From Alphaproteobacteria bacterium (GTDB lineage Bacteria; Pseudomonadota; Alphaproteobacteria; UBA7887), in assembly GCA_965200095.1 (NCBI GenBank), contig OZ241350.1, positions 3,100,159 to 3,164,158 of the forward strand: a stretch of 64,000 nucleotides of DNA, given 5' to 3'. Numbering within the stretch: position 1 is the first letter of the stretch; every line of letters starts with the position of its first letter. The notes under the pieces are model-generated. The model saw only the letters and a list, made by a program, of their open reading frames with translations. It did not search any database and was not told where the DNA came from. This document shows, in pieces, positions 1 to 17,816 of this stretch. Position numbers and translations under genes: made by a program.

Positions 1-2244
1 GCGCAGATGCTGCCCAACGGCATGCTCGCCGGCAAGGCGCGGGCCGCCGCGATGGCGCAGCCCAACCTGTTCTGCGCCATCGATTCCGACGGCACGGTGA
101 CCATCACCTGCAGCCGCAGCGAAATGGGCCAGGGCGTGCGGACGGGCATTCCCATGATGCTCGCCGACGAGCTCGAGGCCGACTGGAACCGCGTGAAAAT
201 CTGGCAGGCGCCGGGCGACGCCGAGAAATACGACCCCGCCGGCCAGGACGCGCAAAACACCGACGGCTCGCGCAGCACGCGCCACCATCTGGACGTCATG
301 CGCGAACTCGGCGCCCAGGCCCGCGACGTGCTCGAACGCGCCGCCGCCGAAATGTGGGGCGTCGACGCGAGCGAGGTCTATGCCCGCGACCATCGCCTCT
401 ACCACACCGGTTCGGGCGAATCCTTCGACTTCGGCGAGGTCGTGGAGACCGCCGCCGGCGTCGAGACCATGGAGTCGGTCCCGCTCAAGGACCCGTCGCA
501 GTGGCGCTACATCGGCAAGGACATGCCGGTGGTCGACAATTTCGACATGAGCACCGGCGGCGGCATCTACGGCGCCGACGTGTCCATCCCCGGCATGAAG
601 ATCGCCGTGGTCGCCCGCTGTCCGGTCTATCGCGGGCGGGTCAAGTCGTTCAACGCCGACGCCGCTCTCGCGGTGCAGGGCGTCGAACAGGTGGTGGAAA
701 TCCCGCCGCTTCCCATGGATACCCCGGCGGAGTTCCGCGCCCTCGGCGGCGTCGCGGTGATCGGGACCAACACCTGGTCGGTTCTCGAAGGCCGCAGGCT
801 GCTCGAGATCGACTGGGACATGGGGCCGAACGTCGCCCACTCCTCGAGCACCTACAACGACATGCTCCGCGAAGCGGCGCGCAAGGGCGCGACCGAAGAC
901 AGCGGCGTGGTGGTGCGCGACCGGGGCGATTTCGACTCCGCCTTCGCCGCGGCCGACCGCACCTTCGAGGCCGAGTATTTCGTGCCGTATTTCATCCACA
1001 CCACCATGGAGCCGATGTGCGCGCTGGTCGACGCCACCGTGGACCCGGTCCAGGTGTGGGGTTCGGTGCAGTCGCCGAACGATGTGCGGAAATACGTCGC
1101 GGACGCCCTCGACATGAAGGACGCCGACGGCAACCCCGACGCCTCCAGGGTGGAGTGTAACGTCACCCTCCTCGGCGGCGGCTTCGGGCGCAAGTCGCAG
1201 AGCGATTTCGCCTGCGAGGCGGCGATCCTGTCCAGGATGATCGGCGCTCCGGTCCGCATGCAGTGGACCCGCGAGGACGACATCCAGATCGGCTACTACC
1301 ACACCGCGAGCGCGCATTCGCTCAAGGCCGGGGTGGACGCCGACGGCAAGGTCACGGCCTGGAAGCACTCCGGCGCATGGCCGTCGATTCTCGCGCTCTG
1401 GGTCCCCGATCAGAAGGTTGGCTTCGGCATCGAATACGGCCTCGGCCTCGTCGATACGCCGTACAACGAAGTGCCGAACATCCGCATCGAGAACGGCGAG
1501 GCGGACCCGATGATCCGCATCGGCTGGTACCGGTCGGTCAACAACATCCAGCATTCGTTCGCGATGAACGGCTTCGCGCATGAAATCGCGACCGAACTGG
1601 GTCAGGACCCGGTGGAATTCCTCGCCCGCATGATCGGCGAGTCCGACAATATGGACCTCGCCGCCGACGGCGTGGAGGACTACTGGAACTACGGCGACCC
1701 GGTGGAGAAGTGGCCGATCATGCCGAACCGCCTGACCAATGCGCTGCGCATCGCCGCGGCGAAGGCGGGCTACGGCAAGCCGCTGCCCCCGGGGCACGGC
1801 ATCGGCGTCGCGGCGCACCGGTCGTTCCACGCCTATGTCGCGACCGCCGTCCACGTCGCCGTGCGCGACGACGGCACGCTGCATGTGGTCCAGGTCGACA
1901 CGGCCTATGACGCCGGGCGCTACGTGAACCCGGAGGGCATCAGGAAGCAGGTCGAGGGCGCGGCCATCTACGGCCACACCATCGCCCTGCACGGCCAGAT
2001 CACGACCACCGACGGCGCGGTCGATCAGAGCAACTTCCACGACTACCCGATCACCCGTATCGGCGATGCGCCGCTGAACGTGCGGGTGCACCTGGTGGAA
2101 GACTTCGTGGACCGTCCGCCGAACGGCGTCGGCGAACCGGGCGTTCCGCCCTATGCGCCGGCTCTGGCCAACGCCATCTTCGCGGCCACCGGCAAGCGGA
2201 TTCGCAACCTGCCGATCCGCCCCGAAGACGTCGCGGGCGCGTAG
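1..2244 (+). CDS. Xanthine dehydrogenase-family molybdopterin-binding subunit (isoquinoline 1-oxidoreductase beta/IorB-like); N-terminus probably begins upstream of the window
   Basis: Motifs RSEMGQG, LGGGFGRK, QWTREDD, WYRSV, QSNFHDY and GVGEPGVPP..PALANAIFAATGKRIR; frame open from the window edge. Confidence 0.9.
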   Translation, partial: AQMLPNGMLAGKARAAAMAQPNLFCAIDSDGTVTITCSRSEMGQGVRTGIPMMLADELEADWNRVKIWQAPGDAEKYDPAGQDAQNTDGSRSTRHHLDVMRELGAQARDVLERAAAEMWGVDASEVYARDHRLYHTGSGESFDFGEVVETAAGVETMESVPLKDPSQWRYIGKDMPVVDNFDMSTGGGIYGADVSIPGMKIAVVARCPVYRGRVKSFNADAALAVQGVEQVVEIPPLPMDTPAEFRALGGVAVIGTNTWSVLEGRRLLEIDWDMGPNVAHSSSTYNDMLREAARKGATEDSGVVVRDRGDFDSAFAAADRTFEAEYFVPYFIHTTMEPMCALVDATVDPVQVWGSVQSPNDVRKYVADALDMKDADGNPDASRVECNVTLLGGGFGRKSQSDFACEAAILSRMIGAPVRMQWTREDDIQIGYYHTASAHSLKAGVDADGKVTAWKHSGAWPSILALWVPDQKVGFGIEYGLGLVDTPYNEVPNIRIENGEADPMIRIGWYRSVNNIQHSFAMNGFAHEIATELGQDPVEFLARMIGESDNMDLAADGVEDYWNYGDPVEKWPIMPNRLTNALRIAAAKAGYGKPLPPGHGIGVAAHRSFHAYVATAVHVAVRDDGTLHVVQVDTAYDAGRYVNPEGIRKQVEGAAIYGHTIALHGQITTTDGAVDQSNFHDYPITRIGDAPLNVRVHLVEDFVDRPPNGVGEPGVPPYAPALANAIFAATGKRIRNLPIRPEDVAGA

Positions 2245-2266
2245 CGCCGCGAGCGTCCGAAACCTG

Positions 2267-2298
2267 CGCGGCTGCCTTCGGGCAGCCGCGTTTTTCTT
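2267..2298 (+). terminator. Rho-independent terminator
   Basis: Perfect 10-bp stem CGCGGCTGCC-TTCG-GGCAGCCGCG followed by TTTTTCTT. Confidence 0.85.
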
Positions 2299-2316
2299 GT
2301 CCGCAGGGCGAAGCGC

Positions 2317-2730
2317 ATGACCGATATCCTCGACAAGCACGCGAAAGTTTCCCGAAGCGACGCGGAGTGGCGGCGCCTCCTCACCCCCGAACAGTTCAGG
2401 GTCGCGCGCCGCGGCGGCACCGAACGCGCCTTCACCGGCGCCTGGTGGGACAGCAAGACGCCGGGAACCTATGACTGCGTCTGCTGCGGCGCGGCGCTGT
2501 TCTCCTCGACCGACAAATTCGACTCGGGGACCGGCTGGCCGAGTTTCGTTCGCCCGCTCGACGGCGCCGCGGTGGCGACGGCGCGCGACGAATCCTGGGG
2601 CATGATCCGCACCGAGGTCCTGTGCGCGCGCTGCGACGCGCATCTCGGCCACGTCTTCGACGACGGGCCGGCGCCGACGGGCTTGCGCTATTGCCTCAAC
2701 TCGGCGTCGCTCAAACACCGGCGCGCGTGA
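2317..2730 (+). CDS. msrB: Peptide-methionine (R)-S-oxide reductase
   Basis: [44 protein letters not shown]. Confidence 0.95.
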
Positions 2731-3893
2731 GCGTTCCCCTCACGGAGGAACGGCAGCGTATCGTCGAGGCGGTTTCGCGCGTCTGTAGCCGCTTCGACGC
2801 CGCCTGGTGGCGCGAACGCGAACGCACTCATTCGTTCCCGCACGAATTTCACGCCGCTGTCGCCGAGGCCGGCTGGCTCGGCATCGCCATGCCGCCGGAA
2901 GTCGGCGGCGCGGGCCTGGGAGTTACCGAAGCGGCGCTCATGATGCGCGCCATCGCCGAGTCGGGCGCGGCGATGAGCGGCTGTTCGGCCGTCCACATGA
3001 ACATTTTCGGCCCTCTCCCCATCGTCGCCTTCGGCACGGAGGAGCAACGGCGGCGGTTTCTGCCGCCGCTGATCGAGGGCCGCGAGAAAGCCTGCTTCGC
3101 GGTGACCGAGCCCGACGCCGGCCTCGACACGACTCGGGTGAAGACCCGCGCGAGGCCGCAGGGGAACGGTTACGTCATCGACGGGCGCAAGGTCTGGACA
3201 TCGACCGCGCAGGTCGCCGACAAGATGCTGATTCTCGCGCGCACGACGCCCATAGAGGACTGTGCAAAGCCCGCGGACGGTCTGAGTCTGTTCTATACCG
3301 ACCTCGACCGCGGCGCGGTGACGGCGCGCGAGATCGTCAAGATGGGTCGCCATGCGGTCGACTCGAACGAACTGTTCATCGACGGTCTCCGGGTTCCGGC
3401 GGAAGACCGGATCGGCGAGGAGGGCAAGGGCTTCCGCTATCTGCTGCACGGCCTCAACCCCGAGCGCATTCTTGTCGGGGCGGAGGGCGTCGGCATCGGC
3501 CGCGCGGCGCTCGGGCGCGCGGCGCGCTATGCCCGCGAGCGCGTCGTTTTCGGGCGCCCGATCAGCGCGAACCAGGCGGTCCAGCACCCGCTCGCCGAGA
3601 GCTGGGCCGAGCTCGAGGCGGCGGAGCTCATGGTTTTCGAGGCGGCGCGGCGCTACGACGCGGGCGAGCCTTGCGGCGTGGAGGCGAACGCCGCGAAGCT
3701 TCTGGGCGGGCGCGCCGGCTACCGCGCCTGCGAACGCGCAGTCTTCGCCCATGGCGGTTTCGGCTACGCGGCGGAGTTCGACGTGGAGCGTTTCATGCGC
3801 GAAATATGGATCGCCCGTCTCGCCCCGGTTTCCGAGCAGCTAATCCTGAGCTACATCGCCGAACGCGCTCTGGGGCTCCCGAGATCCTACTGA
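2727..3893 (+). CDS. Acyl-CoA dehydrogenase
   Basis: GTG start overlaps msrB stop (GTGA); [31 protein letters not shown]. Confidence 0.9.
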
Positions 3894-3931
3894 AGGCGCG
3901 TCCTTTCTCGCTACCCCGCGGAGAGTCTTCA

Positions 3932-5023
3932 ATGCCTCGTGCGAAGCCGAACTCGGTGTTGTTCCTGACGGTCTGTTCGCTCACCAAGGCGAGTGGCGGC
4001 GCGCCCGCATACGATGAAGGGTTGGCGATAACCTCCCTGCTGCCGTCGAAATTGAAGGCCCGGCTGCTGGAACGTCGCGAAGAGGCAAGGCGCCTCGTGC
4101 GGGGCGAAAGAGACTTGGACTGGCAAGGAATTCCCTTGTCCGAACTGGAATTCAACCGCGATCTGGCCGAGGGCGCTGACTTCGGGGGACGCCGCCGCGC
4201 GGCATATCTGCCGGCCGTGTATCGTTACGACGGACGCTTCTTTCAGACATTGGGGAATGAAGGCAGACGAAAGATCGCGGAAGGAGAGTATCCCACGCTG
4301 ATCCTCTCCGGCTTATACGGGTTATTGCTCCCCACCGAGCCGATTCAACTCTACAGCTGTCCTCTCAGCGATCAAATTTCAGAACTGTGGCGTTCGGATT
4401 CCCTGCTCACGGAAGTCTTGTGTGAATACATAAGAAGGCGCGATATCGCCCGGATATTCGATTTGACCGCCATCGAAGGCTATTCGCAACTCATCGACTG
4501 GGCGCGGATTACGGTCACGCAAACGGAAGTACTGCGTTGCGCCGACAGCATGGCGGCAGGGGATTACGCTTTGACGTCCTTCGGACGCCTCCTGAGAACG
4601 ACAATGCTCGAAATGTCCGAGGACGAGCTGATCGATATTCAACCGGAGACCAGAATAGAAACCGTCAATTTTGCGCCGTTCGAATATCCCGCATCTCCGG
4701 CGCATGGTAGAGAACCCGTTCCCCCGGGCGGATCGACCGCCGTCGAGGGAGTCGAAAAGCGCGGTTGGCGTGTAAGAATTACGTCGAATTTCTTGAAGTA
4801 TATGAAGCAACACCCCGAAACATTCGATCCGACGAGCCGGGCGGTCGAGGAAATACGGCAAGACCCGCTATCTCTGCGCGGCGATACAATCAAGCCTCTT
4901 TCGCACGATCTGAAGGGAAAGTGGCGGTATCGGATTGGCGATTTCCGTATCGTATACGAAGCGGACCTCGAGCGGAAGATCGTGCGTCTGTTGGACGGCG
5001 GCCCCAGAAGCGGTATCTACTGA
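3932..5023 (+). CDS. YaaA/DUF328-like N-terminal domain fused to a C-terminal RelE/ParE-family toxin domain (363 aa)
   Basis: ATG at 3932 after GGAGAG; YaaA-like motifs PAVYRYDGRFF and ILSGLYGLL.P.EPIQLY; C-terminal IKPL..DLKGKWRYRIGDFRIVY...GPRSGIY typical of RelE; lower GC than neighbours. Confidence 0.75.
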   Translation: MPRAKPNSVLFLTVCSLTKASGGAPAYDEGLAITSLLPSKLKARLLERREEARRLVRGERDLDWQGIPLSELEFNRDLAEGADFGGRRRAAYLPAVYRYDGRFFQTLGNEGRRKIAEGEYPTLILSGLYGLLLPTEPIQLYSCPLSDQISELWRSDSLLTEVLCEYIRRRDIARIFDLTAIEGYSQLIDWARITVTQTEVLRCADSMAAGDYALTSFGRLLRTTMLEMSEDELIDIQPETRIETVNFAPFEYPASPAHGREPVPPGGSTAVEGVEKRGWRVRITSNFLKYMKQHPETFDPTSRAVEEIRQDPLSLRGDTIKPLSHDLKGKWRYRIGDFRIVYEADLERKIVRLLDGGPRSGIY

Positions 5024-5140
5024 AGTCCCTGTCGACACAGAGTATCCGGTTTTCTTGACGTTCTCGTAGCGGATGCGGAGATACACTTTCGCTACGGCGC
5101 TCGGGCCGCAGGCGGACGTGCAAAACTGGACCACTCCCGT

Positions 5141-5962
5141 TCAACGCCGGGCGTTCCAGGGCGGGTCGAATTCGCGGATCAGCGCAGATTCCAGGCGCTG
5201 GGGTTCGTCGGTTTCCCGGATCCACAGGTCGATTGTCCGGTTTTCGCGCGTCGCCAGCAGGATCGCGTTGTTGATCTTGCAATTCGTCGATTGTCCGCCG
5301 CTGTAGCAGTTTGCCGGCTGTATGCGAGTGTAGCCTTGCCACCGTCGGCGCAGATCTTTTTTGGCCATACCCACATAGGCCACGATCCGCCGGTCGACGA
5401 CGACCGCGTACACGCCGGGGGCAGTGGGCAATTCGGGCTCCGGGAACCGACAGAACGGCCCATGGCCGTTCGGATTGAGGGGTTTCCGCCCAGCCTTCTT
5501 GTAGCGCTTTTGCGGCATAAACTCCTTCGGCCTGCCGCCAGCCCACGCTTCCGGCTCGATGCTGTCGAACCGGCGGAATCCCCACCCGGCCAACCCCGGC
5601 GCCGTCGCGTCAACTCCTGTCGGCGGCTCTTCGACCGGGCGCCTGGCGCTACGGTCGGGGCGGGCGGCGGCCGGGCGGAATCGATGACGGCGATCGCCGG
5701 CGGCCGACGCAAGCGGAGCGCCGCGGCGGCGGAACACGACCGTCCCTTGCCGAACATTCACGTCGCTTGTGCGCCAGCCGGCGTTCATCCACGCGGAGGC
5801 CTGGCTATGGCTCTCGTCGTTCGACCACCAGACGGGATACTTTCTCGCGGAAGGCGGCAACACGCTTCCGAGAACGGCTTCGACATCGCGAAATGTCGCC
5901 GGCCACAGGGGCGATTGCAGCGCCCCGAGATGCCGTCCAAGTCTCTCATATTTGCCTGCCAT
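5141..5962 (-). CDS. DUF7662-like N-terminal domain plus GIY-YIG nuclease domain
   Basis: N-term KY..L..HL...TF.DVE.VLG..LP.SA....WWSN...HSQA.AW..AGW; C-term PGVY..V....AYVG.A..L.RR...Y...TN.KIN...LE..LI....PPWN. Confidence 0.75.
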   Translation of the reverse strand: MAGKYERLGRHLGALQSPLWPATFRDVEAVLGSVLPPSARKYPVWWSNDESHSQASAWMNAGWRTSDVNVRQGTVVFRRRGAPLASAAGDRRHRFRPAAARPDRSARRPVEEPPTGVDATAPGLAGWGFRRFDSIEPEAWAGGRPKEFMPQKRYKKAGRKPLNPNGHGPFCRFPEPELPTAPGVYAVVVDRRIVAYVGMAKKDLRRRWQGYTRIQPANCYSGGQSTNCKINNAILLATRENRTIDLWIRETDEPQRLESALIREFDPPWNARR

Positions 5963-6005
5963 CGCATACTCCTGCGGGATGCGCCGCTCCGCACCTGCCG
6001 ACCGC

Positions 6006-6034
6006 TTGAAACGCCGGCCGCGCCGCGTTAGGTT
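6006..6034 (+). promoter_or_regulatory. Putative sigma70 promoter for the DUF1244/acyl-CoA operon
   Basis: TTGAAA-17 nt-TAGGTT, ~115 nt before ATG 6151. Confidence 0.5.
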
Positions 6035-6057
6035 GCGTCCGCCTCGGGGGAACCCTT

Positions 6058-6121
6058 CCGATCCGGGATAACGGGTTGATGCGGAACATTATCTCACGGT
6101 CGGCACCTCCGATGGACCCGA
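6058..6121 (+). ncRNA. Candidate structured cis-regulatory 5' UTR RNA (possibly sul1-motif-like)
   Basis: Stem CCGA-t-CCG-GGATAA / TTATCT-ca-CGG-TCGG; loop CGGGTT (6072-6077) complementary to GACCCG (6115-6120), a possible pseudoknot. Confidence 0.35.
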
Positions 6122-6150
6122 CGGCGGCCCGCGACCCTCAGGAGACAGCG

Positions 6151-6435
6151 ATGGACCCGAACACGAAAACCGAGATCGAAGCGGCGGCGTTCCGGACGCT
6201 TGTGGGGCATTTCCGGGAGCGGACCGATGTGCAGAACATCGACGTCATGGAACTGGCGGGCTTCTGTCGCAACTGCCTGTCGAAATGGTACCGCGCCGAA
6301 GCCGAAGCGCGCGGCGAAACCCTGAGCTACGAGGACGCGCGGGAAATCGTCTACGGCATGCCCTATGCCGAATGGAAGGCGAAATACCAGACCGCCCGCC
6401 CGAAAGACGGCGCCGGCGACTCGGCGGGGGCGTGA
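6151..6435 (+). CDS. DUF1244 family protein
   Basis: EIEAAAFR.L..H...RTDVQNID.M.LAGFCRNCLSKWY...AREIVYGMPY.EWK; GGAG RBS. Confidence 0.9.
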   Translation: MDPNTKTEIEAAAFRTLVGHFRERTDVQNIDVMELAGFCRNCLSKWYRAEAEARGETLSYEDAREIVYGMPYAEWKAKYQTARPKDGAGDSAGA

Positions 6436-6441
6436 ACGGCG

Positions 6442-7263
6442 GTGGCGGCGTTCGGACAATATCGCGACCTCGGGGTCGTCCTGGAGGACCATGTGGCGCT
6501 GGTGGAGATCCGGCGCCCGCCGCATAACTTCTTCGACCACGCGCTGATCGGCGCCCTCGCCGACGCCTTCGAGGCGCTCGACCGCGAGGGCGACTGCCGC
6601 GCCATCGTGCTCGCGTCGCAAGGCAAGTCGTTCTGCGCCGGGGCGGATTTCGCGTCGGGCGGCGATTTCAGCGAACGCCAAGCCGCCCCGGCGGACGGCC
6701 GCGGCGGCGCCGAACCGCTCCGCGCCGACTCCCTCTATCGCGAGGCGGTGCGCCTGTTCCGCACAGGCGCGCCGATAGTCGCGGCGGTGCAGGGCGCGGC
6801 GGTCGGGGGCGGGCTGGGGCTGGCGATGGTCGCCGACCTCCGCGTGACCTGCCCGGAGGCGCGCTTTTGCGCCAATTTCACCCGGCTCGGTTTCCACCCC
6901 GGCTTCGGGTTGACGGAAACCCTCCCCGCCGTAATCGGGCCGGGCAAGGCGGGGCTGATGTTCTATACGAGCCGCCGCGTCAAGGGCGATGAGGCGTTCC
7001 GCTACGGCCTCGCCGATGTGCTGGCGGCGGATCGGGAGAGCGTTCGCCCCGAAGCCATGAAACTGGCGGCGGAGATCGCCGAAAACGCGCCGCTGGGGCT
7101 GACGGCGACGCGCGCGACGATGCGCGCCGGCCTCGCCGACCGGGTCGCTGCGGCGACCGACCGGGAGCTCGCGGAACAGACCCGCTTGCGGGCGACGGCG
7201 GATTTCGCCGAAGGGGTAAAGGCGATGGCGGAGCGGCGAAGACCGGACTTCGCGGGGCGCTGA
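6442..7263 (+). CDS. Enoyl-CoA hydratase/isomerase family protein
   Basis: FCAGADF, AAVQGAAVGGGLGLA..AD.R, LGFHPGFG, DFAEGV.A..ERR.P.F. Confidence 0.92.
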   Translation: MAAFGQYRDLGVVLEDHVALVEIRRPPHNFFDHALIGALADAFEALDREGDCRAIVLASQGKSFCAGADFASGGDFSERQAAPADGRGGAEPLRADSLYREAVRLFRTGAPIVAAVQGAAVGGGLGLAMVADLRVTCPEARFCANFTRLGFHPGFGLTETLPAVIGPGKAGLMFYTSRRVKGDEAFRYGLADVLAADRESVRPEAMKLAAEIAENAPLGLTATRATMRAGLADRVAAATDRELAEQTRLRATADFAEGVKAMAERRRPDFAGR

Positions 7264-7266
7264 GCG

Positions 7267-8346
7267 ATGGCCGCGCCGGAGGCGGTCGAACGAACGGTCG
7301 ACCCGGCGCTGGTCGAGGGCGTCGCGCGCATCCTGCGCGATCTGGCGGATCCGCGCGACGTTAACGCCGCTGCCGACGGCGCCTGGCGGGCGCCGTTGTG
7401 GCGGGCTCTCGAAACTTCGGGCGCGACCCGGCTGTGGTTGCCCGAGGCCGCCGGCGGCGCCGGCGCTTCGCTGGCGGAGGGGTTCGCGGTCCTGCGCCGG
7501 GCCGGCGCCTTCGCGCTTTCCGCGCCGCTGGCGGAAACGCTGATCGCCGCCCGCCTGCTCGCCCGCGCCGGGCTCCGCGTCCCCGAAGGACCGCTTGCGG
7601 TCGCGGAACTGCCGCCCGACGCGCTGGACGGCGGCGTGCTGAAGGGGAAGGCGACGGCGGTTCCCTTCGCGGCCGAAGCGCGGTGGCTGGCGGTGTCCGC
7701 CGGCGGACGGGTGGCGCTGGCGGCGCGCGAGGCGTGCGGTATCGGGGCGGGCGCGAACCTCGCCGGCGAGCCGCGCGGCGACGTAACGTTCGACGGGATA
7801 CGCCCCGCCGCGGTGGCGATGAGGGAAATCGACCGGCGGGAATTGCGGACGCTCGGCGCCGCCGCGCGGGCGGCGCAAATGACCGGCGCGCTGGAGGCGC
7901 TGCTCGACATGACGGTGAGCCACGCCCGCGAGCGGGTCGCTTTCGGACGACCGATCGCGAAATTTCAGGCCGTGCAGCACGAATTGGCGAAACTCGCGGG
8001 GGAAACCGCGGCGGCCATCGCAGCGTCGGGCGCCGCCGCGGCGGCGCTGGCGGAAACCGACGGCGGAGACCGCATGGACGACCGCGCCTGGATGGAAGTC
8101 GCGGCGGCGAAGGTCCGGGTCGGCGAGGCCGCCGGCGCCGGCGCCGCGATCGCCCATCAGATGCACGGCGCCATCGGTTTCACCGCCGAACATGTCTTGC
8201 AGCGCTATACGCGCCGGTTGTGGTCGTGGCGCGACGATTTCGGCGCCGAAAGCCGCTGGGCGGAGGAACTGGGGCGCATGGTCGCGGCGGCGGGCGCGGA
8301 CGCCCTGTGGCCGACCCTCACGCGGCCGGCGGGGAGCGCGGCATGA
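7267..8346 (+). CDS. Acyl-CoA dehydrogenase family protein (short, likely one subunit of a two-gene ACAD)
   Basis: RVAFGRPIAKFQAVQH, HQMHGAIGFT.EH. Confidence 0.88.
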   Translation: MAAPEAVERTVDPALVEGVARILRDLADPRDVNAAADGAWRAPLWRALETSGATRLWLPEAAGGAGASLAEGFAVLRRAGAFALSAPLAETLIAARLLARAGLRVPEGPLAVAELPPDALDGGVLKGKATAVPFAAEARWLAVSAGGRVALAAREACGIGAGANLAGEPRGDVTFDGIRPAAVAMREIDRRELRTLGAAARAAQMTGALEALLDMTVSHARERVAFGRPIAKFQAVQHELAKLAGETAAAIAASGAAAAALAETDGGDRMDDRAWMEVAAAKVRVGEAAGAGAAIAHQMHGAIGFTAEHVLQRYTRRLWSWRDDFGAESRWAEELGRMVAAAGADALWPTLTRPAGSAA

Positions 8347-9497
8347 GCATTCCGCTGCGTTTCGACCCGGCGCCCCTGCCGCCGGAGGCGGAGTCCCTGC
8401 GGCGCGACGTGCGCGCCTTTCTCGAGGCCGAGACGGCGGCCGGAACCATCGATCCGAACGGCGGGCGCGACGCTTTCGACCGCGGTTTCAGCCGCCGCGT
8501 CGGCGCGCGCGGCTGGATCGGCATGACATGGCCGAAACGTTACGGCGGCGGCGAGCGCAGTTTCCTCGAACGTTATGTGGTGAACGAGGAAATGCTGGCC
8601 GCCGGGGCGCCGACCCAGGCGCATTTCGTCGCCGACCGCCAGTCGGGGCCGGTCTTGCTGGCCTATGCGACGGAAGAGGTGAAACGCGATGTGCTGCCGC
8701 GCATCGTCCGCGGCGAATGCGCGTTCTGCATCGGCATGAGCGAGCCGGAGGCGGGCTCCGACCTGTTCGCCGCCCGCGCCCGCGCCGCGCGCGCGGCGAA
8801 CGGGTGGCGGCTGGACGGGCGCAAGGTCTGGACCAGCTACGCCCATCGCGCCGACTACATGATCGGCCTGTTCCGCACCGCGCCGGCGACGGCGGACGAC
8901 CGCCGCTACGGCCTCAGCCAGTTCCTCATCGACATGAAGACTCCTGGCGTCGAGGTCTCGCCGATCCCGTTCATGACCGGAGAGAGCGAGTTCAACGAAG
9001 TCGTGTTCGAGGACGCGCGACTGCCCGCGAACGCGCTGCTGGGCGAAGAGAACATGGCCTGGAAACAGGCGACGGGCGAGCTCGCCTTCGAACGCAGCGG
9101 GCCGGAGCGTTTTCTCGAAACCTTTCAGGTGCTGACGGGCCTGGTCCGGGCGCTGGGGCCGGCGCCCGACCGGCGCGGCGCCGAGGGGCTGGGGCGGCTC
9201 GCCGCGCAGCTCAATACCTTGCGCCGTATGTCGATCGCGGTCGCGGGGATGCTCGCCGCCGGCGAACGACCGGCGCTTGAAGCCTCGCTGGTCAAGGACC
9301 TCGGGAGCAATTGGGAGCAGGCGCTGCCGGCCGTGGCGCGCGATCTCGCCGCCTTCGTCGAACGCGACGCGGGGAACCGCCCCGATTTCGAAGGGATTCT
9401 CGCCCATGCGACGATGATCGCCCCGAAACTCACTATCCAGGGCGGGACCCGCGAGGTGCTGCGCGGCATCGTCGCGCGCGGCCTGGGGCTGCGCTGA
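8343..9497 (+). CDS. Acyl-CoA dehydrogenase
   Basis: ATGA overlap with upstream gene; IGMSEPEAGSDL, GRKVWTS, FNEVVF, TIQGGTREV. Confidence 0.92.
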   Translation: MSIPLRFDPAPLPPEAESLRRDVRAFLEAETAAGTIDPNGGRDAFDRGFSRRVGARGWIGMTWPKRYGGGERSFLERYVVNEEMLAAGAPTQAHFVADRQSGPVLLAYATEEVKRDVLPRIVRGECAFCIGMSEPEAGSDLFAARARAARAANGWRLDGRKVWTSYAHRADYMIGLFRTAPATADDRRYGLSQFLIDMKTPGVEVSPIPFMTGESEFNEVVFEDARLPANALLGEENMAWKQATGELAFERSGPERFLETFQVLTGLVRALGPAPDRRGAEGLGRLAAQLNTLRRMSIAVAGMLAAGERPALEASLVKDLGSNWEQALPAVARDLAAFVERDAGNRPDFEGILAHATMIAPKLTIQGGTREVLRGIVARGLGLR

Positions 9498-9502
9498 GCG
9501 AG

Positions 9503-12500
9503 CTACCCGGCGGCGGCGAGTTCGACCGACACCAGCTGCGACACGCCGCGCTCGCCCATCGTCACGCCGTAGAGACGCTGCATCCGCGCCATCGTGTGGC
9601 GGTGGTGGGTGACCACCAGGAAACGGGTTCGTGTCTCGGCGGCGATGTCGTCGAGCAAATCGCAGAAGCGTTCGACGTTGGCGTCGTCGAGGGGCGCGTC
9701 GACCTCGTCGAGGACGCAGAGCGGCGCCGGACGGGTGCGGAACACGGCGAACAGCAGCGCCAGCGCCGCGAGCGCCTTTTCCCCGCCCGACAGCAGAGAC
9801 AATGTTTGCGGGCGCTTGCCCGGCGGGCTGGCGACGATCTCCAGGCCGGCCTCGAGGGGGTCGTCCGCGCCGACGAGGGACAGATGCGCGCGGCCGCCGT
9901 CGAACAGGCGCGCGAAAAGCTCGCGGAAATGGCCGTCCACTTCTTCGAACGCCGCCGTCAGCCGCGCCCGGCCCTCGCGGTTGAGAGAGCCGATGGCGTC
10001 GCGCAGGCGGGCGACGGCGGCAACCAGGTCGTCGCGCTCGCGGCGCATGGCGCCGATGCGCTCGTCGAGTTCCGCCGCCTCGAGTTCGGCGCGCAAATTG
10101 ACCGCCCCCATGCGGTCCCGTTCGCGGCGCAGGGCGTCGGCGCGGCGTTCGAGGGTCCCGGCGTCGTCGAGCTCCTCCACGCCGCCGGCGCCGGCGATGC
10201 GGAAAGCGTCGGCGGGACCGCAATCGAATTTGTCCGCGATCCGCTCGGCCTCGAGTTCGACGCGGGCGCCGGCCGCCTCGCGCGCCCCCTCGGCGCGGAC
10301 TTTCTCCTCGCGGCTTCGCGCCAGCGCGCGGTTGGCGTCTGCGAGCGCGCGGTCCGCCCCGGCAAGGCGGGTTTCTGCCGCCGCGAGAAACTCTCCGGCG
10401 CTGCGCTGCGCGGCTTCGGCGGCGCGGAGGTCGTCGTCGAGCGCGGCGCCGCGTCGTTCGAGGCGCGCCGGCCGGGCGCGCAAGTCCCGAAGGCGCCGCT
10501 CGGTTTCGGCGCGACGGTCGGCGAGGGTTCGAAGGCGTTCGGCGGCGCCGGCGCGGCGCCGGCGCCAGTCGGCGGAATCGGCGTCCAGCGCCGCGAGCCG
10601 CGCCGCGCGGGCCTCGGCGGCGCGCGCGAGGGCGGCGTGGCGGCGCAGCAATATGTCGAGGTCGTTGCGCGCCGTCCGGTTCGCATAACGACGGGCGGCG
10701 ACGGCGGCGCGCAGCGCGCCCCGGTCGGGCAGGGCGGCGAGCGCGCGGGCGGTCTCTTCGCGTTCGGCGGCGGTTTCGCGCCGGTCGCGGTCGATGGCGG
10801 CGGCGGTTTCGCCGAGCGCCGCAAGTCGCGCCTGCCCGGCGGCGCGCCGGCCGGCGGCCGCGTCGCGGCGTTCGCGCGCGGCTTCGAGCGCCCTTGCGGC
10901 GCCGGCGGCGGCGCGGGCGCCGCGCGATTCGGCGCTGCGGGCGGTTTCCAGCGCGGCCAGCGCGGCCCCCAGGACGTCGGCGGCGCGAGCGGCGCCGGCC
11001 TCCGCCGCCTCGCGGCGCGCCGCGAGCGCGGCAGCCTCCGATTCGAGACGCGCCAGCCGGCGGCGTTGCGCAAGGCGCGCCGCCGCGCCGCCCCGGGCCT
11101 CGGCGGCGGCGACGAAACCGTCCCAGCGCCACAGGTCGCCCTCGCGGCTCACCAGGCGCTGACCTTGCGCCAGCGCCGCTTGCAGCGCGGGCCCGTCGGC
11201 GCGCGCCGCCAGCCCCACCTGGCGGAGCCGCGGCGCGAGCAGCGGCGGCGCCCGGACGACGTCCGCAAGGGGTTGCGCCCCTGCGGGCAAGGGAGGCGTC
11301 TCGGGGCGGTCATCGCCGGGTAGCGCGCGCCAGTGCGCCGCCGCGCCGGCGTCGTCGCTCGCCAGCAGATCGTCGCCGAGCGCCGCCGCTACGGCGAGGA
11401 CGAGCGGTCCGGGCACATCGAGACGGTCGAGCAGCGGCCGCCGCGAGCCGCCCGCGAGCAGCGTGGCGAGCGCGTCGCGTTCGGCGGCGGCGCGTTCGTG
11501 AGCCACCGCGGCGTCCCGCAGCGCTTCGCGTTCGGCGCGTTCGGCGGCGGCTGCGGCGTCGCGGCCGCGCGTGGCGGCGCGCACCGCCTTTCTGCGGGCT
11601 TTCAGGGCGTTCGCCCGCGCCTCTTCGCGCTCGCGCGCAGCGGCGTGCGCAGCTTCGGCCGCCGCGCCTTCGCCATCGTCGCGCAGCGCCGAGGCGACGG
11701 CGTCGCGTTCCTGTGCGACCGCGGCGGCGCGGCAATCGAGCGTCGCCATGCGCGCCTCGAGCGCCGCGGCGCGACGGACGGCGGACTCGCGCCGGGCGCC
11801 GGTTTCCGCCAGCGCCCCGGCGGCGGCAGCGAGTTCTCCCTCGATCCGTTCGACGCGCCGCCGCCCGGCGGCCAGCGCGAGTTCGGCGCGGGCGCGGCGG
11901 TCGCCCTCGGCCGCGCGCGCGGCGCGCAACCGCCGGGCTTCCCCGGCGAGACGGCCGTCCGCGGCTTCGGCTTCGGCGGCGAGCTCGCGCTCGCGGGCGG
12001 AGGCTGTCCCGGCGGCGTCGAGCCGGGCGCGCGCCGCTTCGGCGGCGTCCGCCAGACGGCGGAGTTCCTCGCTCACCTCGCGACGTTCGGTTTCGAGCCG
12101 CCGCGCCGCCGCGGCGGCCTCGGCTTCGGCGCCGCGCAGGGCCGGAACGGCGGCGGCCGCACGGCCTTGCGCCGCCGCGGCCTCCTCCGCGCCGCCGCTG
12201 CTCTCATTCACCGCGAGGGTTGCCCTTGCGAGCGCGGTTGCGGCGTCGCCGGCGGCGGTCTCGGCCTCGGCCCAACGGTGGCAATACAGCCCCGCCTCGG
12301 CGCGCCGCAGGCGCCGCCCCAGGGCGCGGTAGCGGGCGGCCTGGCGCGCCTGACGCCGGGTTTCCGCCAGATGGGCGTCCTCGGCGGCGATGATGTCGTC
12401 GAGGCGTTCGAGATTGGTTTCCGCGGCGCGGAGGCGGAGTTCGGCCTCGCGCCGGCGCCCGTGCAGCCCGGCGATGCCGGCGGCTTCCTCGATCAGGCGG

Positions 12501-13003
12501 CGCCTTTCGGTGGGTCTTGCGCCGATGAGCGCGCCGATTTCGCCCTGACTCACCAGCGCCGACGAACGCGCGCCGCCGGTCGCGTCGGCGAACGTCAGCT
12601 GCACGTCGCGCGCGCGGGTCTCGCGCCCGTTTATCCGGAACACGGAGCCGCCGCCGCGCTCCATGCGCCGCGCGATCTCGATCTCGCCTTCTGTCTCCAC
12701 CCCGGTTCCGCCGTCGCCGGCGCGACCGTCCGCGCCCTGCGGAGCGCCGACCAGCGCCAGACTGACTTCGACGAGGGCGCTCGGGGGGCGCCCGCCGGCG
12801 CCGGCGAAGATGACATCGTCCATTTCGTCGCCGCGGATGCGGCGGGCGGCGCTTTCGCCCATGGCCCAGCGCAGCGCGTCGACGAGGTTGGACTTGCCGC
12901 ACCCGTTGGGTCCGACAATGCCGGTCAGTCCCGGTTCGATACGGAGTTCGGTCGGCTCGACGAACGATTTGAAGCCGGCGATTCTCAGTCGGGCGAGGTG
13001 CAA
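9503..13003 (-). CDS. smc: Chromosome segregation SMC protein
   Basis: GFKSF, Walker A GPNGCGKSN, long coiled coils, LSGGE signature, Walker B VLDEVDAPLD; TTG start. Confidence 0.95.
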   Translation of the reverse strand: MHLARLRIAGFKSFVEPTELRIEPGLTGIVGPNGCGKSNLVDALRWAMGESAARRIRGDEMDDVIFAGAGGRPPSALVEVSLALVGAPQGADGRAGDGGTGVETEGEIEIARRMERGGGSVFRINGRETRARDVQLTFADATGGARSSALVSQGEIGALIGARPTERRRLIEEAAGIAGLHGRRREAELRLRAAETNLERLDDIIAAEDAHLAETRRQARQAARYRALGRRLRRAEAGLYCHRWAEAETAAGDAATALARATLAVNESSGGAEEAAAAQGRAAAAVPALRGAEAEAAAAARRLETERREVSEELRRLADAAEAARARLDAAGTASARERELAAEAEAADGRLAGEARRLRAARAAEGDRRARAELALAAGRRRVERIEGELAAAAGALAETGARRESAVRRAAALEARMATLDCRAAAVAQERDAVASALRDDGEGAAAEAAHAAAREREEARANALKARRKAVRAATRGRDAAAAAERAEREALRDAAVAHERAAAERDALATLLAGGSRRPLLDRLDVPGPLVLAVAAALGDDLLASDDAGAAAHWRALPGDDRPETPPLPAGAQPLADVVRAPPLLAPRLRQVGLAARADGPALQAALAQGQRLVSREGDLWRWDGFVAAAEARGGAAARLAQRRRLARLESEAAALAARREAAEAGAARAADVLGAALAALETARSAESRGARAAAGAARALEAARERRDAAAGRRAAGQARLAALGETAAAIDRDRRETAAEREETARALAALPDRGALRAAVAARRYANRTARNDLDILLRRHAALARAAEARAARLAALDADSADWRRRRAGAAERLRTLADRRAETERRLRDLRARPARLERRGAALDDDLRAAEAAQRSAGEFLAAAETRLAGADRALADANRALARSREEKVRAEGAREAAGARVELEAERIADKFDCGPADAFRIAGAGGVEELDDAGTLERRADALRRERDRMGAVNLRAELEAAELDERIGAMRRERDDLVAAVARLRDAIGSLNREGRARLTAAFEEVDGHFRELFARLFDGGRAHLSLVGADDPLEAGLEIVASPPGKRPQTLSLLSGGEKALAALALLFAVFRTRPAPLCVLDEVDAPLDDANVERFCDLLDDIAAETRTRFLVVTHHRHTMARMQRLYGVTMGERGVSQLVSVELAAAG

Positions 13004-13069
13004 CGCGCCCTCCGCGCCGGCGGTTTCCCGGCGGTCGCCCGCCGTCGGGGCGCGGGAGCCCGCGGGGCG

Positions 13070-13738
13070 CTACTCGGCGCGCGCCGCGACTGCGCGTTCG
13101 AGGTCGCGGTCCGTCGGCGGGTCGTCCAGCCGTTCGCCGTTGAGGACGAAACTCGGAGTGTGGTCGATATCGTATTCGGCGATGGCTTCGGCGCGCGAGC
13201 GCAGCAGGGCGTTCTGGAGGTCGACATCGCACAGACACTCGCCGACGCGACGCTCGCTCATGCCGCCCTTGCCGCCGAGTTCGGCGAGTTTCTCCCAGAT
13301 TTCCGGCCATTCGCTGCGCGGGCAGTCCGCCTCGAGAAAGGCGTTCCAGCTGTCGCCCGTCATGCCGAAAGCGGCGGTCGCCCATTCGCGCTGCGCGGCG
13401 AAGATCAGGTCGAGCCAGGCGAAATAGCGGTCGGGAGCGGCGCAGTGGGCCAGCGCGCCGCCGAACACCGCGGCGCCGTTGAGCGGAAAGTCGCGGAACT
13501 CGAGCTTCACCATGCCGGTGTCGATGAACGTCTCCTTGATCTCCGGCAGCCGCTGGCTGTGGAAGGCGGCGCAATGGGGGCAGCTCATGGACGCGAATTC
13601 GATCAGCGTGACCGGCGCATCGGGGTCGCCGAGGGTCTTGGGCGAGGCGTCGACGGCCGCGTCTTCGGCCAACGCAGACGACAGCGCGGCGATCAGACCG
13701 GACAGAAAGGCGGCGGCTGCGAAACTGCGACGAAGCAT
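13070..13738 (-). CDS. DsbA-family thiol-disulfide oxidoreductase
   Basis: Signal peptide, G...APVT.IEFASMSCPHCA.FH, RDFPL, HTP cis-Pro motif. Confidence 0.9.
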   Translation of the reverse strand: MLRRSFAAAAFLSGLIAALSSALAEDAAVDASPKTLGDPDAPVTLIEFASMSCPHCAAFHSQRLPEIKETFIDTGMVKLEFRDFPLNGAAVFGGALAHCAAPDRYFAWLDLIFAAQREWATAAFGMTGDSWNAFLEADCPRSEWPEIWEKLAELGGKGGMSERRVGECLCDVDLQNALLRSRAEAIAEYDIDHTPSFVLNGERLDDPPTDRDLERAVAARAE

Positions 13739-13756
13739 GGTGCGGTCCTCGGCGGG

Positions 13757-14344
13757 TTACGGTTCGTTCGACCACGGGCTCGAGTCGCCCGGAGGAATGG
13801 GAACGACGGGTTCGGCACTATCGCCCGCGCGCCCTTGCGGCACAAGCGCCGGGCGGTTCGCCGCGGCGACGCGGCGGCCGAGCCGCTCCAGCGCCTCTCG
13901 CAGCGCGCCGTCGGAAACCGTCGCCAGCGACGCCCGGGCGCCGGCGGGCGCGTCGCGCGCCGGCCCGGGTTCGCGCCGGGCGGCGGGCGGCGGCGGAAGC
14001 GGTTGCTGGCGACAGACGAGGCGCTTGACGGCTTCGTAGCCGGCAAAGACGGCGATCCGCTCCCGCAGCTGGGGCTCGACATGCTGCAACAGGAGCGCGG
14101 TCGGGCCGTCGGCGCGCAGCACCAGCGTGCCGTCCCGGCGCAATTTTTCGGGGGCGCAGCGGGCGGCGAAGTCGGGTCCGACGATCGCCGCCCACTCGGT
14201 CAGCAATTTCGCCTCGCGGAAACCGCGCGCGGCGAAAGCGCGGCCGCCGACGCGCGCCACGAGGCCGCCGATACGGCGGACTTTGCCGCGCGGCAGGGCC
14301 GGCGCCGCTTTCTCCCTGCGGTGTCGCGCGCCGCTGCGTCGCAT
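13757..14344 (-). CDS. DUF721/DciA-family protein (start approximate)
   Basis: GF....L...W..IVG...A....PEK.....L...GP.ALLLQH..P.L.ERI....GY..V; position between dsbA and mutY. Confidence 0.75.
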   Translation of the reverse strand: MRRSGARHRREKAAPALPRGKVRRIGGLVARVGGRAFAARGFREAKLLTEWAAIVGPDFAARCAPEKLRRDGTLVLRADGPTALLLQHVEPQLRERIAVFAGYEAVKRLVCRQQPLPPPPAARREPGPARDAPAGARASLATVSDGALREALERLGRRVAAANRPALVPQGRAGDSAEPVVPIPPGDSSPWSNEP

Positions 14345-14607
14345 CGTCCCTCCCCGCCAGCAATTCTCATTTGGCCCGTAGCGATGCGGCGGACCGGTCG
14401 CGGCCGCCCCTGGGAGCGCCGGCGTCTCGCCGGCATCTGTGTCGTCGCACGCTTCGCGCGCATGCCGGCGAGACGCCGGCGCTCCCAGGGAGGGCGTGTC
14501 CATCGCCATAATGAGAACCGCTGCCTCCCCGCCGCCGTCCGCTTGTCCGTCGCTTCGGGCCGGCTACGCTGGGCGGGAGTCTACCGCCACGCGACCGGGG
14601 CGCGCCA

Positions 14608-15687
14608 ATGTCGGAGCACGGGGCCGGCGAGAACGCCGCGGCGGCGCTGCTCGCATGGTTCGACCGCCACCGCCGCGACCTGCCGTGGCGCGCCGCGCCG
14701 GGCGTGCGACCGGACCCTTACGCCGTCTGGCTCAGCGAAACGATGCTGCAACAGACCACGACAACGACCGTCGCGCGCTATTTCGGGCGCTTCCTCGCCG
14801 CATGGCCGACGGTAGAGGCGCTTGCGGACGCCGATCTCGACGCGGTCATGCGCGCCTGGTCGGGCCTCGGCTACTACGCCCGCGCGCGCAACCTTCACGC
14901 TTGCGCGCGGGAAGTGGCGCGCGCGCATGGCGGGCGGTTCCCGCCGGACGAGGCCGGCTTGCGCCGGTTGCCCGGCGTCGGCGCCTATACGGCGGCGGCG
15001 GTGTCGGCCATCGCCTTCGACCGGCCGGCGGCGGTGGTGGACGGCAATGTCGAACGGGTCATGGCGCGGCTTTTCGCGGTGGAGGCGCCCCTGCCCGGGG
15101 CGCGGGCCGAGTTGCGCGCCCGCGCCGCCGAACTGACGCCGCAGCGCCGCCCCGGCGACTATGCGCAGGCGGCGATGGACCTCGGCGCGACGGTCTGCAC
15201 GCCGCGCCGGCCGCATTGTCTCGATTGTCCGTGGCGGGAACGGTGCCGGGCGCGGGCCCGCGGAACCGCCGCCGAACTGCCGCGCCGGTCGCCGCGGCCG
15301 ATGCGGCCGCTGCGCCACGGCGTCGTTTTCTGGATCGTGCGCAACGACGGCGCGGCGCTGTTCGTGCGCCGCCCGCCGCACGGCCTGCTGGGGGGCACGG
15401 TGGGGCTGCCGACGACGGAGTGGGGCGACGCCCCGGTCGTCGATGCCGAACCGCCGGCGCCGGCGCGGCGGCTCCGCACCCTGCCCGGCGTCGTGACTCA
15501 TGGTTTCACCCATTTCCGCCTCGAATTGCGCGTCCGCGCCGGAGTTGCGCAGGGCCCCGCGCGTTCCGGCCTGTGGCTCGCTCCCGGGGAGATCGACGCG
15601 CAGGCGTTGTCGACACTGATGCGCAAGGCGGTCGCCCATGCGCGCGCCCGCGCCTCCGGGTCCGACGGCCACGAGCAACTGTCTTGA
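14608..15687 (+). CDS. mutY: A/G-specific adenine DNA glycosylase
   Basis: LPWR, MLQQT, GLGYYARARNL, LPGVG.YT, VDGNV.RV, C-x6-C-x2-C-x5-C Fe-S motif, HGFTHF. Confidence 0.95.
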   Translation: MSEHGAGENAAAALLAWFDRHRRDLPWRAAPGVRPDPYAVWLSETMLQQTTTTTVARYFGRFLAAWPTVEALADADLDAVMRAWSGLGYYARARNLHACAREVARAHGGRFPPDEAGLRRLPGVGAYTAAAVSAIAFDRPAAVVDGNVERVMARLFAVEAPLPGARAELRARAAELTPQRRPGDYAQAAMDLGATVCTPRRPHCLDCPWRERCRARARGTAAELPRRSPRPMRPLRHGVVFWIVRNDGAALFVRRPPHGLLGGTVGLPTTEWGDAPVVDAEPPAPARRLRTLPGVVTHGFTHFRLELRVRAGVAQGPARSGLWLAPGEIDAQALSTLMRKAVAHARARASGSDGHEQLS

Positions 15688-15765
15688 TTCGGCGACGGCG
15701 ACAGAGTATCGGGCGGCTTCGTGTTCCGTCGCGCGGCAACGGAAGATTCGGCGCGGACCCAGGTC

Positions 15766-17130: not shown

Positions 17131-17816
17131 CGACAGGGCCGCGCTTCCCCGACCTCGGGATCGTCATACCCACCCTGGACGCGGGGGCCGTGCTGGGTCC
17201 CACATTGCAGGCCGTCGCCGGAGTCGCGGGGGACATCGTGGCGGTGGACGGGGGGTCCGCCGACGACACGCGCGAGCGGTTGCGGGCCGCCGGAGTCCGC
17301 ATCGCGACGGCGCCGCGCGGGCGCGGGACGCAACTCGCCGCCGGCGCGGCGGCGGTGCGCGGCGACTGGCTCCTGTTCCTGCACGCCGATTCGCGCCCGG
17401 GCCGCGGCTGGCTCGAGGCCGCGGCGGGGTTCATGCGCAGCCGCGACTCGCATCGGCGCGCGGCGGCGTTCCGTCTGGCGCTGGACCTGCCCGGGCGCGC
17501 GGCGCGGCGCCTGGAGCGCGCCGTGGCGTGGCGCTGCCGCGTCTTCGGACTGCCGTGGGGCGATCAGGGTCTGCTGATATCGCGCCGCCTCTATGACGAG
17601 ATCGGCGGTTACCGCCCCATGCCGCTGATGGAAGACGTGGATATGGCGCGGCGTCTGGGGCGGCGGCGGATCGTCATGCTGGACGCGGAGATGCTCACTT
17701 CGGGGCGGCGCTACCGGGGCGGCGTGGCGGCGCGCGGACTGTTCAATCTCGGCTGTCTGGGGCTGTATTTCCTCGGCGTCCCGCCGCGCGCGCTGGCGCG
17801 CCTCTACGCGCGGTGA
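17127..17816 (+). CDS. Family 2 glycosyltransferase, TIGR04283-like
   Basis: VIPTL, VDGGS.D, GRG.QL, FLHADS, GDQGL, PLMEDV, TSGRRY. Confidence 0.85.
   Translation: MTTGPRFPDLGIVIPTLDAGAVLGPTLQAVAGVAGDIVAVDGGSADDTRERLRAAGVRIATAPRGRGTQLAAGAAAVRGDWLLFLHADSRPGRGWLEAAAGFMRSRDSHRRAAAFRLALDLPGRAARRLERAVAWRCRVFGLPWGDQGLLISRRLYDEIGGYRPMPLMEDVDMARRLGRRRIVMLDAEMLTSGRRYRGGVAARGLFNLGCLGLYFLGVPPRALARLYAR

Follow-up and report, generated by a model that had tools for sequence, protein, structure and literature searches.

A 64,000-nucleotide (nt) stretch of the genome of Alphaproteobacteria bacterium (GenBank assembly GCA_965200095.1, contig OZ241350.1, forward-strand positions 3,100,159 to 3,164,158), hereafter the window, harbours a gene for a protein of 363 amino acids (aa), here called P0001. 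In this protein, an N-terminal domain predicted to have the YaaA/DUF328 ('cantaloupe') fold is joined through a linker to a C-terminal domain of the predicted RelE toxin fold. P0001 is almost certainly a real, conserved fusion protein. It probably belongs to an undescribed, horizontally mobile family of conflict proteins, of the anti-phage or abortive-infection type. A role of the family in conflict or defence is likely, and a mechanism in which a sensor gates the RelE domain is proposed tentatively, at somewhat short of even odds. The best reading overall, to which we give a probability of roughly 0.4, is that P0001 acts on its own in defence or abortive infection, with a RelE ribonuclease (RNase) gated by a domain that reads nucleic acids.

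The single open reading frame (ORF) of P0001 contains all motifs quoted in the first-pass annotation, which was made from the sequence alone: PAVYRYDGRFF, ILSGLYGLLLPTEPIQLY, the linker YPASPAHGREPVPPGG, and WRYRIGDFRIVY. Its description of a genuine YaaA-like/RelE-like fusion was borne out by matches to both folds and by a homologous protein search, which revealed 278 relatives at E<=1e-3. The 120 relatives listed share 42-88% identity with P0001, mostly over 95-100% of the query length, and many of them possess both Pfam domains. A search of 1.84 billion representatives returned 998 matches at E<=1e-3, counted as representatives at 50% identity, including 360 at <=1e-10 and 102 at <=1e-30. 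In an alignment of 38 sequences, 42 invariant columns are spread over both domains. An independent metagenome contig spans positions 3800-5093 of the window with three differences and no gaps, and a second one, from another study, spans 4369-5281 with seven differences and no gaps. The possibility raised earlier that the fusion is a singleton read-through artefact is ruled out by the full-length relatives and by these gap-free contigs over the junction. Homologues share the N-terminus MPRA/MPRT...VLFL, which in the alignment corresponds to the start at 3932. A longer frame beginning at 2807 was rejected as the start of P0001, since it overlaps the acyl-CoA dehydrogenase gene upstream in another frame. 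Near-identical copies are present in marine and sponge metagenome runs; among the 21 listed runs carrying the stretch, none is an RNA run.

The N-terminal domain of P0001 is matched by Pfam PF03883 (YaaA) at residues 91-200, with 29.8 bits (cut-off 29.6), a partial match to profile positions 72-185 of 236. DUF6884 (PF21818) scored 12.3 bits against a cut-off of 30. A match to DUF328 or DUF6884 had been anticipated for this part, and only the former was recovered, just above its cut-off. In the window's own genome, a comparably weak PF03883 level was reached only by the two fusion paralogues, and no canonical YaaA was found there. The AlphaFold2 model of P0001, built with 38 homologues, comprises two folded parts (mean predicted local distance difference test, pLDDT, 84.1; predicted template modelling score 0.68), with a pLDDT below 50 in the linker at residues 253-276. 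Residues 5-251 of the model resemble E. coli YaaA (5caj) with a Foldseek E of 1.3e-7, and 5caj is the best structural match of the prediction (VIA Z 15.7, root-mean-square deviation 3.7 Å, 216 of 261 residues aligned). Identity in this structural alignment is only about 15%, and the search of the PDB with the family profile gave a YaaA match at 0.019.

P0001 also possesses motifs of the DUF6884 type, CxxxK and LSAxxG, in the form C15-S-L-T-K19 and L125-S-G-L-Y-G130 (Gly for Ala), which are invariant among the 38 relatives. In a wider set of 143 representatives, C15 was found in 97, S16 in 118, and K19 in 122. The residues kept across this set are S16, K19, R49, N75, D83, R98, Y99, S126, and Y129, together with Q139, Y141, W153, D177, W190, and H202, and conservation is higher in the N-domain than in the RelE domain. 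Position 202 (codon at 4535-4537 of the window) is His in 37 of the 38 close relatives and in 120 of the 143 wider representatives; P0001 is the exception among the close relatives and has Arg. No variant of codon 202 was present among the listed rows of four metagenome runs.

The C-terminal part of P0001 was described by the first-pass annotation as a complete RelE-like domain, in agreement with the fold and profile matches obtained here. Pfam ParE_toxin matches residues 303-354 with 21.9 bits, below the cut-off of 23, and many homologues exceed this cut-off with 24-34 bits. NCBIfam gave weak YoeB/RelE matches for P0001. The family profile found Rv2866 (RelE2) in the PDB at 3.8e-8 and RelE1 at 4.9e-7, as well as archaeal RelE, RelK, and YoeB, and no ParE match at E<=1. 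In the predicted structure, residues 277-363 are closest to M. tuberculosis RelE1 (Z 12.9), T. thermophilus RelE (12.2), and E. coli RelE (11.7), followed by YoeB, YafQ, and ParE at Z 10-11.8 (ParE Z 10-11.4). Among the 38 sequences, R339 and Y342 are present in all 38, R359 in 37, R334 in 36, the C-terminal Y363 in 34, and R332 in 33. The basic and Tyr residues of P0001 align with R and Y of Rv2866, and R332, R334, R339, R359, and Y363 lie at what we take to be the active-site or catalytic positions of E. coli RelE. RelE toxins cleave mRNA on the ribosome. By its residues, the domain falls in the RelE subfamily of ribosome-dependent mRNases, and would be expected to act as an RNase.

No adjacent cognate antitoxin gene, as found in type II toxin-antitoxin systems, accompanies P0001. 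The first-pass annotation had noted the absence of a small antitoxin gene on either side, and no antitoxin-sized gene lies beside P0001 in the window. Its neighbourhood was compared with those of 29 related loci taken from species-representative genomes (30 loci in total). Nearly all of the 29 are alpha- or gammaproteobacterial metagenome-assembled genomes (MAGs), with one labelled Heimdallarchaeota and one Chloroflexi. An all-against-all comparison of ORFs of at least 50 aa within 3.5 kilobases (kb) revealed no conserved small neighbour in the 30 loci, apart from overlapping-frame shadows of the fusion gene. Since no small conserved ORF stands beside these loci, the family is regarded as antitoxin-less.

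The sole recurring neighbours are a pair of genes, found in seven of the 29 related loci (L001, L002, L005, L008, L012, L013, and L020). The first gene of the pair encodes a protein with a strong DUF6884 match (Pfam E 1e-42 to 1e-48). The second encodes a protein of about 250 aa that has no local Pfam match and is identified as GIY_YIG_3 by ESM Atlas with a score of 0.97. PADLOC names the pair PDC-M57A (8.5e-35) and PDC-M57B (1.6e-78), a candidate defence system. Purpose-built hidden Markov models (HMMs) confirmed the pair in the same number of loci and pointed to a weak eighth case in L003; in L001 and L012 the two genes are fused into a single protein. NCBIfam provided no name for the DUF6884, GIY_YIG_3, or HEPN-like neighbours.

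Pfam and PADLOC scans of the two nearest ORFs on each side of the fusion gene (101 of 111 candidates, ten PDC-M57 ORFs being excluded) detected further genes predicted to participate in defence. Including PDC-M57, a raw count of 15 of the 29 loci possess a neighbour with a PADLOC model, and this co-occurrence check, together with the architecture search, had been suggested along with the original proposal. Type I restriction-modification (RM) subunits adjoin the fusion gene in L022 and L026, and a type II methyltransferase in L010. Other PADLOC neighbours are AbiEi (L012), a methyl-directed restriction endonuclease-like protein (L017), an NsnA/PD-T4-2-like GmrSD together with a separate HEPN protein (L019), a BrxH-like helicase with an MkoA fragment (L021), PDC-S11/DUF4268 (L018 and L022), and a ZacB-like protein (L023). 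Pfam alone detected Xre/MbcA antitoxins (L003 and L004), PIN (L009), Uma2 (L006), DUF559 (L007), AbiU2 (L017), and IS1595 (L015). Matches of Lon to BrxL (L018 and L024) and of an ABC transporter to mad3 (L028) were set aside as housekeeping look-alikes, and no CARF or Cas matches were found among the neighbours.

Two of these neighbourhoods have a particular order of genes. In L022 (1358-7418) the fusion gene directly follows hsdS-hsdM of a type I RM system and is followed by PDC-S11 (DUF4268, NucS-like); in L026 (1697-3862) it directly follows hsdM. This position is presumably like that of PrrC or RloC, latent RNases guarding an RM system. Anticodon nucleases of the PrrC/RloC type differ from P0001 in folds and targets, and the copy in the window has no RM neighbour. 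In a gammaproteobacterial MAG with three copies of the fusion gene, one copy lies beside PDC-M57 (L001) and the other two beside Xre/MbcA-type antitoxin genes (L003 and L004).

The N-domain also occurs with other C-terminal partners. A purpose-built HMM detected a RelE-type C-domain in 26 of the 150 best representatives. Clustering by BLAST of the C-terminal tails of at least 90 aa, present in 124 representatives, gave 31 RelE-like tails, 31 helical tails with an RNxxxH/Y motif, 18 unassigned, 13 Schlafen/AlbA_2, seven HEAT/TPR, five PDC-M34B/HEPN_SAV2148-like, and two NERD, plus singletons. The RNxxxH/Y group looks HEPN-like, the motif having been judged by eye. The profiles A3 (27 proteins) and A4 (17 proteins) gave only YaaA matches in the PDB; one of the two C-domains concerned is helical with RNxxxH/Y, and the other contains RDIPVTSGxHxTIF...GPGK, with no PDB or Pfam match. 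P0102 and P0106 are triple fusions of YaaA-like, RelE-like, and HicA domains, with HicA placed after the RelE domain, so that two RNase-toxin folds are carried on one sensor-like domain. Standalone N-domain proteins exist as well, e.g. of 235-247 aa. These data support a pairing of the N-domain with nuclease-type domains that can replace one another, which is what would be predicted for a sensor-effector layout.

The genome of the window encodes a paralogue of 477 aa (L031, 775-2208, minus strand; G000:C1 about 2167130-2168563), whose N-domain is 38% identical to that of P0001. The C-terminal half of this paralogue matches the C-terminus of Druantia DruE (PADLOC DruE3, 1.4e-31). In L032 (366-3092, minus strand), the same genome possesses three clustered genes: one for a GIY_YIG_3 protein (PDC-M57B-like), one for a DUF6884 protein, and one whose product has an Rx4H HEPN-like motif. 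Judged by their domains and motifs, they form a system of the PDC-M57 type to which a putative RNase has been added.

The fusion gene is part of the accessory genome. P0001 has a match in two of 41 related genomes, own included; among five congeners one has a match, located elsewhere in the genome, and none has a match to 3900-6160 of the window. In all five, the left flank (MsrB/acyl-CoA dehydrogenase) lies more than 190 kb from the right flank (DUF1244/enoyl-CoA hydratase), and the islet sits at a synteny break. The GC content is 0.55-0.58 across 4000-5250 and 0.67-0.75 in the flanks, in line with the earlier remark that it is below that of the host genes. A horizontal acquisition of P0001 is supported. 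At the borders of the islet only short, chance-level repeats were found, with no integrase and no integration signature, and no tRNA was found in a scan of positions 1-20000. P0001 had no match in 50,697 phage records and no relative among IMG/VR viral contigs, and the plasmid search returned RelE-domain-only matches in three Synechococcus plasmids, with no full fusion.

The fatty-acid gene setting described by the first-pass annotation was recovered, and the description had overlooked a convergent gene, here called P0002, which encodes DUF7662 and GIY-YIG domains. The upstream flank contains genes for MsrB and an acyl-CoA dehydrogenase, and the downstream flank contains DUF1244, enoyl-CoA hydratase, and two acyl-CoA dehydrogenase-like genes. 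P0001 is separated by 38 nt from the upstream gene and by 117 nt from P0002. A scan of 3600-6300 found no promoter-like sites, and four terminator-like sites against 2.8 expected. The features are listed in Table 1.

Table 1. Coordinates of the fusion gene, its parts, and the surrounding islet (positions of the window)
Feature	Coordinates	Strand	Basis
Fusion gene P0001, 363 aa	3932..5023, stop codon included	+	Open reading frame and 278 relatives
Shine-Dalgarno-like GGAGAG, 6 nt 5' of ATG	3920..3925	+	Seen in the sequence; putative function
N-terminal YaaA/DUF328-fold ('cantaloupe') domain, residues 5-251	3944..4684	+	Pfam, fold match, conservation
Pro-rich, predicted disordered linker, residues 252-276	4685..4759	+	pLDDT <50; length varies among homologues
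C-terminal RelE-fold domain, residues 277-363	4760..5020	+	Profile against PDB, fold match, residue counts
P0002, 273 aa, convergent	5141..5962	-	Pfam DUF7662, GIY-YIG motifs, fold match
Two-gene accessory islet between acyl-CoA dehydrogenase and DUF1244 genes	3894..6075	.	GC profile; no congener match

P0002 possesses an N-terminal DUF7662 (residues 1-80, nt 5723-5962, Pfam 6e-14), followed by a disordered linker and a GIY-YIG nuclease domain (residues ~125-273, nt 5144-5590). The GIY-YIG motifs G183-V-Y185, Y196-V-G198, R207, E258, and N270 are conserved in 35 relatives, and the fold matches include T4 EndoII at 1.8e-5 and the N-terminal GIY-YIG domain of UvrC. The GIY-YIG family of P0002 was found in 510 tblastn-confirmed metagenome stretches, and DUF7662 may precede or follow the nuclease domain. 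The window's own genome has a further DUF7662 match of 61.7 bits, in a 141-aa open frame (L128; G000:C1:201461-201688, plus strand), and no paper on DUF7662 was found in the literature. The DUF6884 protein of L013 has a P0002-like DUF7662 at its N-terminus (45% identity over 80 aa, E 3e-20), which links the three families. P0002 was considered as an obligate partner of P0001 and rejected: none of 80 P0002-type metagenome loci, many of them on short contigs, has a YaaA-like, RelE-like, DUF6884, or GIY_YIG_3 match in the flank of up to 4 kb, and no P0002-type gene stands beside any of the 29 related fusion genes. Given this lack of co-occurrence, P0002 is read as an independent module, and appears to be a second single-gene module in a small defence islet. 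P0001 and P0002 are not matched by the PDC-M57A/B models.

Among known systems, Cami1 is a CARF-RelE fusion that is activated by a ligand and has no antitoxin (PMC11229360). The first-pass annotation had recognised no precedent for its layout among described defence systems, a view that Cami1 contradicts. Both proteins have a RelE fold under a fused domain, a sensor in Cami1, and 8phb and 8phj are weak fold matches via the RelE part. The CARF sensor of Cami1 binds cA4 and belongs to CRISPR loci, whereas the N-domain of P0001 has a YaaA fold, and neither a cyclase nor a CRISPR context was seen at the fusion loci. The architecture is new in its candidate sensor module, and the plan of a sensor domain and a toxin domain in a single protein is already known. 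RelE/RelB-type toxins, such as M. tuberculosis RelE1/RelE2 and E. coli RelE, share with P0001 the fold and the basic and Tyr residues. P0001 differs from them as a fusion without an adjacent antitoxin gene, in which the toxin fold is the C-terminal third of the 363 aa. No description of a YaaA-RelE fusion was found in the literature, in a search that left subscription journals largely outside.

E. coli YaaA has a basic depression, co-purifies with double-stranded DNA, and takes part in the peroxide response (PMC4834066). It is a single-domain, OxyR-regulated housekeeping protein. P0001 departs from this vertically inherited, single-domain type as an accessory fusion of low GC, and has a Cys before the S-x-x-K motif, as in DUF6884. 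DpdC, assigned to DUF6884 (PMC12235509) and to DUF328 (bioRxiv 2025.10.09.681413), turns preQ0-DNA into ADG-DNA in vitro (PMC10164549). In the fold superfamily that it shares with the N-domain, no other member has a demonstrated reaction, and this one takes place on a modified base in DNA; unlike DpdC, P0001 carries a toxin domain. For the biochemistry of the N-domain, the closest reference may be DpdC rather than the peroxide-stress protein YaaA. Abasic and ribonucleotide lesions showed enrichment of YfjM, a DUF6884 protein (PMC10220248), which was modelled flipping a base (PMC11701544). PDC-M57 resembles P0001 in combining a cantaloupe-fold domain with a nuclease, and differs as a two-gene system with a DNase-type partner; besides adjoining the fusion gene, it is present elsewhere in the window's own genome. 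No paper on PDC-M57 was found, and we know of no experimental test of it.

In the preferred reading, that of a standalone defence protein, the N-domain would most likely recognise some feature of nucleic acids, using a basic cleft or pocket with the conserved polar residues as its lining, and would be wired to a C-terminal endonuclease of the RelE type that cuts mRNA in a ribosome-dependent manner. At rest, this RNase would stay silent with no antitoxin. When the cue, which may be foreign, modified, or damaged DNA, meets the N-domain, the RelE domain would be released or activated, mRNA would be cut on the ribosome, and translation would stop; the supposed benefit would be protection against phage. 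The complex prediction of the N-domain (1-252) with the RelE domain (277-363) scored 0.00, 'no answer', and is neutral on auto-inhibition.

P0001 may instead be an enzyme with two activities, in which the YaaA/DpdC-like domain is a catalytic effector (e.g. a hydrolase or modifier of a DNA or RNA base) and gates nothing, and the RelE fold is a second effector or a module targeting RNA or the ribosome. The conservation of the N-domain above that of the RelE domain, with invariant polar residues including C15, S16, and K19, speaks for such an enzyme, as do the existence of HEAT/TPR fusions and the activity of DpdC, of the same superfamily, on DNA-borne preQ0. CxxxK and LSAxxG were also proposed as the active-site motifs of DUF6884 by the Pfam authors (PMC11701544). 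However, toxicity would be expected of a RelE domain that keeps its catalytic-type residues and is not gated, Cys15 is present in only 97 of the 143 representatives, the PADLOC DpdC models miss P0001, and no dpdA, dpdB, or preQ0 genes were seen beside P0001 in the window. We consider this explanation unlikely. Somewhat less probable is a fused toxin-antitoxin or stress module, in which the N-domain or the linker is a cis-antitoxin lost under stress (by proteolysis or oxidative damage), with growth arrest or addiction and not phage sensing as the outcome. It would account for the missing antitoxin gene and the long disordered linker ahead of the RelE domain, and would fit the peroxide response of E. 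coli YaaA and the Lon protease genes directly upstream in L018 and L024. These Lon genes look housekeeping, though, and an N-domain of such size and high conservation, fused also to many domains other than RelE, is a poor fit for a dedicated RelE antitoxin; it occurs as a standalone protein too.

The relation of P0001 to P0002 bears on another explanation, a two-gene system of convergent genes that mirrors the cantaloupe-fold and GIY-YIG proteins of PDC-M57. The fusion gene abuts DUF6884 and GIY_YIG_3 genes in seven of 29 loci, and the DUF6884 protein of L013 shares its N-terminus with P0002. An independent contig joins P0001 and P0002, and relatives of both (76-77% identity) lie on contigs of 3179 nt each, joint travel being suggested by that equality of length only. 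Against such a system stand the absence of partner matches in the 80 P0002-type loci and of P0002-type genes in the 29 fusion loci described above, a convergent arrangement that is not an operon, and the occurrence of PDC-M57 alone in the window's own genome; we hold it to be improbable. It is more improbable still that the RelE fold is no RNase, and that the protein is a non-toxic DNA-maintenance factor with a ParE-like or binding module. ParE structures fit nearly as well as those of RelE (Z 10-11.4 against 11.7-12.9), and the Pfam family, below cut-off in the window copy, is named ParE_toxin. Nevertheless, the profile matches RelE, RelK, and YoeB and not ParE, the family keeps the basic residues and the C-terminal R-x3-Y, and most of the other domains joined to the N-domain have RNase or nuclease folds. 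ParE toxins are not known to carry the RelE-type basic residues or the C-terminal R-x3-Y.

Several observations weigh against the reading of P0001 as a standalone, sensor-gated defence protein. The family is known from sequences and predicted structures alone, and PADLOC 2.0 has no model that matches P0001 at E<=1. In 14 of the 29 loci no recognised defence gene lies within two ORFs, and the 15 loci with such a neighbour are a raw count with no matched random-locus control. Nor are the loci independent: a single genome supplies L001, L003, and L004, and L002 is nearly a duplicate of L005. The window copy scores close to both Pfam cut-offs (29.8 against 29.6, and 21.9 against 23), and R202 may mean an altered N-domain in this copy. 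An enzyme would account for the invariant polar residues of the N-domain no less well than a passive sensor. HEAT and TPR, furthermore, are usually sensor or scaffold modules, and in those fusions the YaaA-like domain could be the effector.

A wider reading is that the cantaloupe-fold domain (YaaA/DpdC/DUF6884) is a general immune sensor of modified or damaged bases in invading DNA, such as the 7-deazaguanine bases employed by many phages, and is wired to many effectors; we regard it as speculative and rather unlikely. The effectors would be RelE, HEPN-like, HicA, Schlafen, NERD, and the DruE C-terminus, and the GIY-YIG DNase in PDC-M57. If this reading is true, the RelE fusion would be a case of modification-dependent abortive infection, with the logic of type IV restriction and translation arrest in place of DNA cleavage.

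With 998 representatives at 50% identity, the family of P0001 is a large one; it is modular and not included in PADLOC 2.0, and PDC-M57 is singled out as a related system. If the reading of P0001 as a standalone defence protein is true, its N-domain would be a new sensor module among single-protein defence systems. It would also be the second case, after Cami1, of a RelE RNase under the control of a fused sensor instead of an antitoxin. For the YaaA/DUF328/DUF6884 superfamily, in which DpdC provides the one reaction proven so far, P0001 would offer a biological handle.

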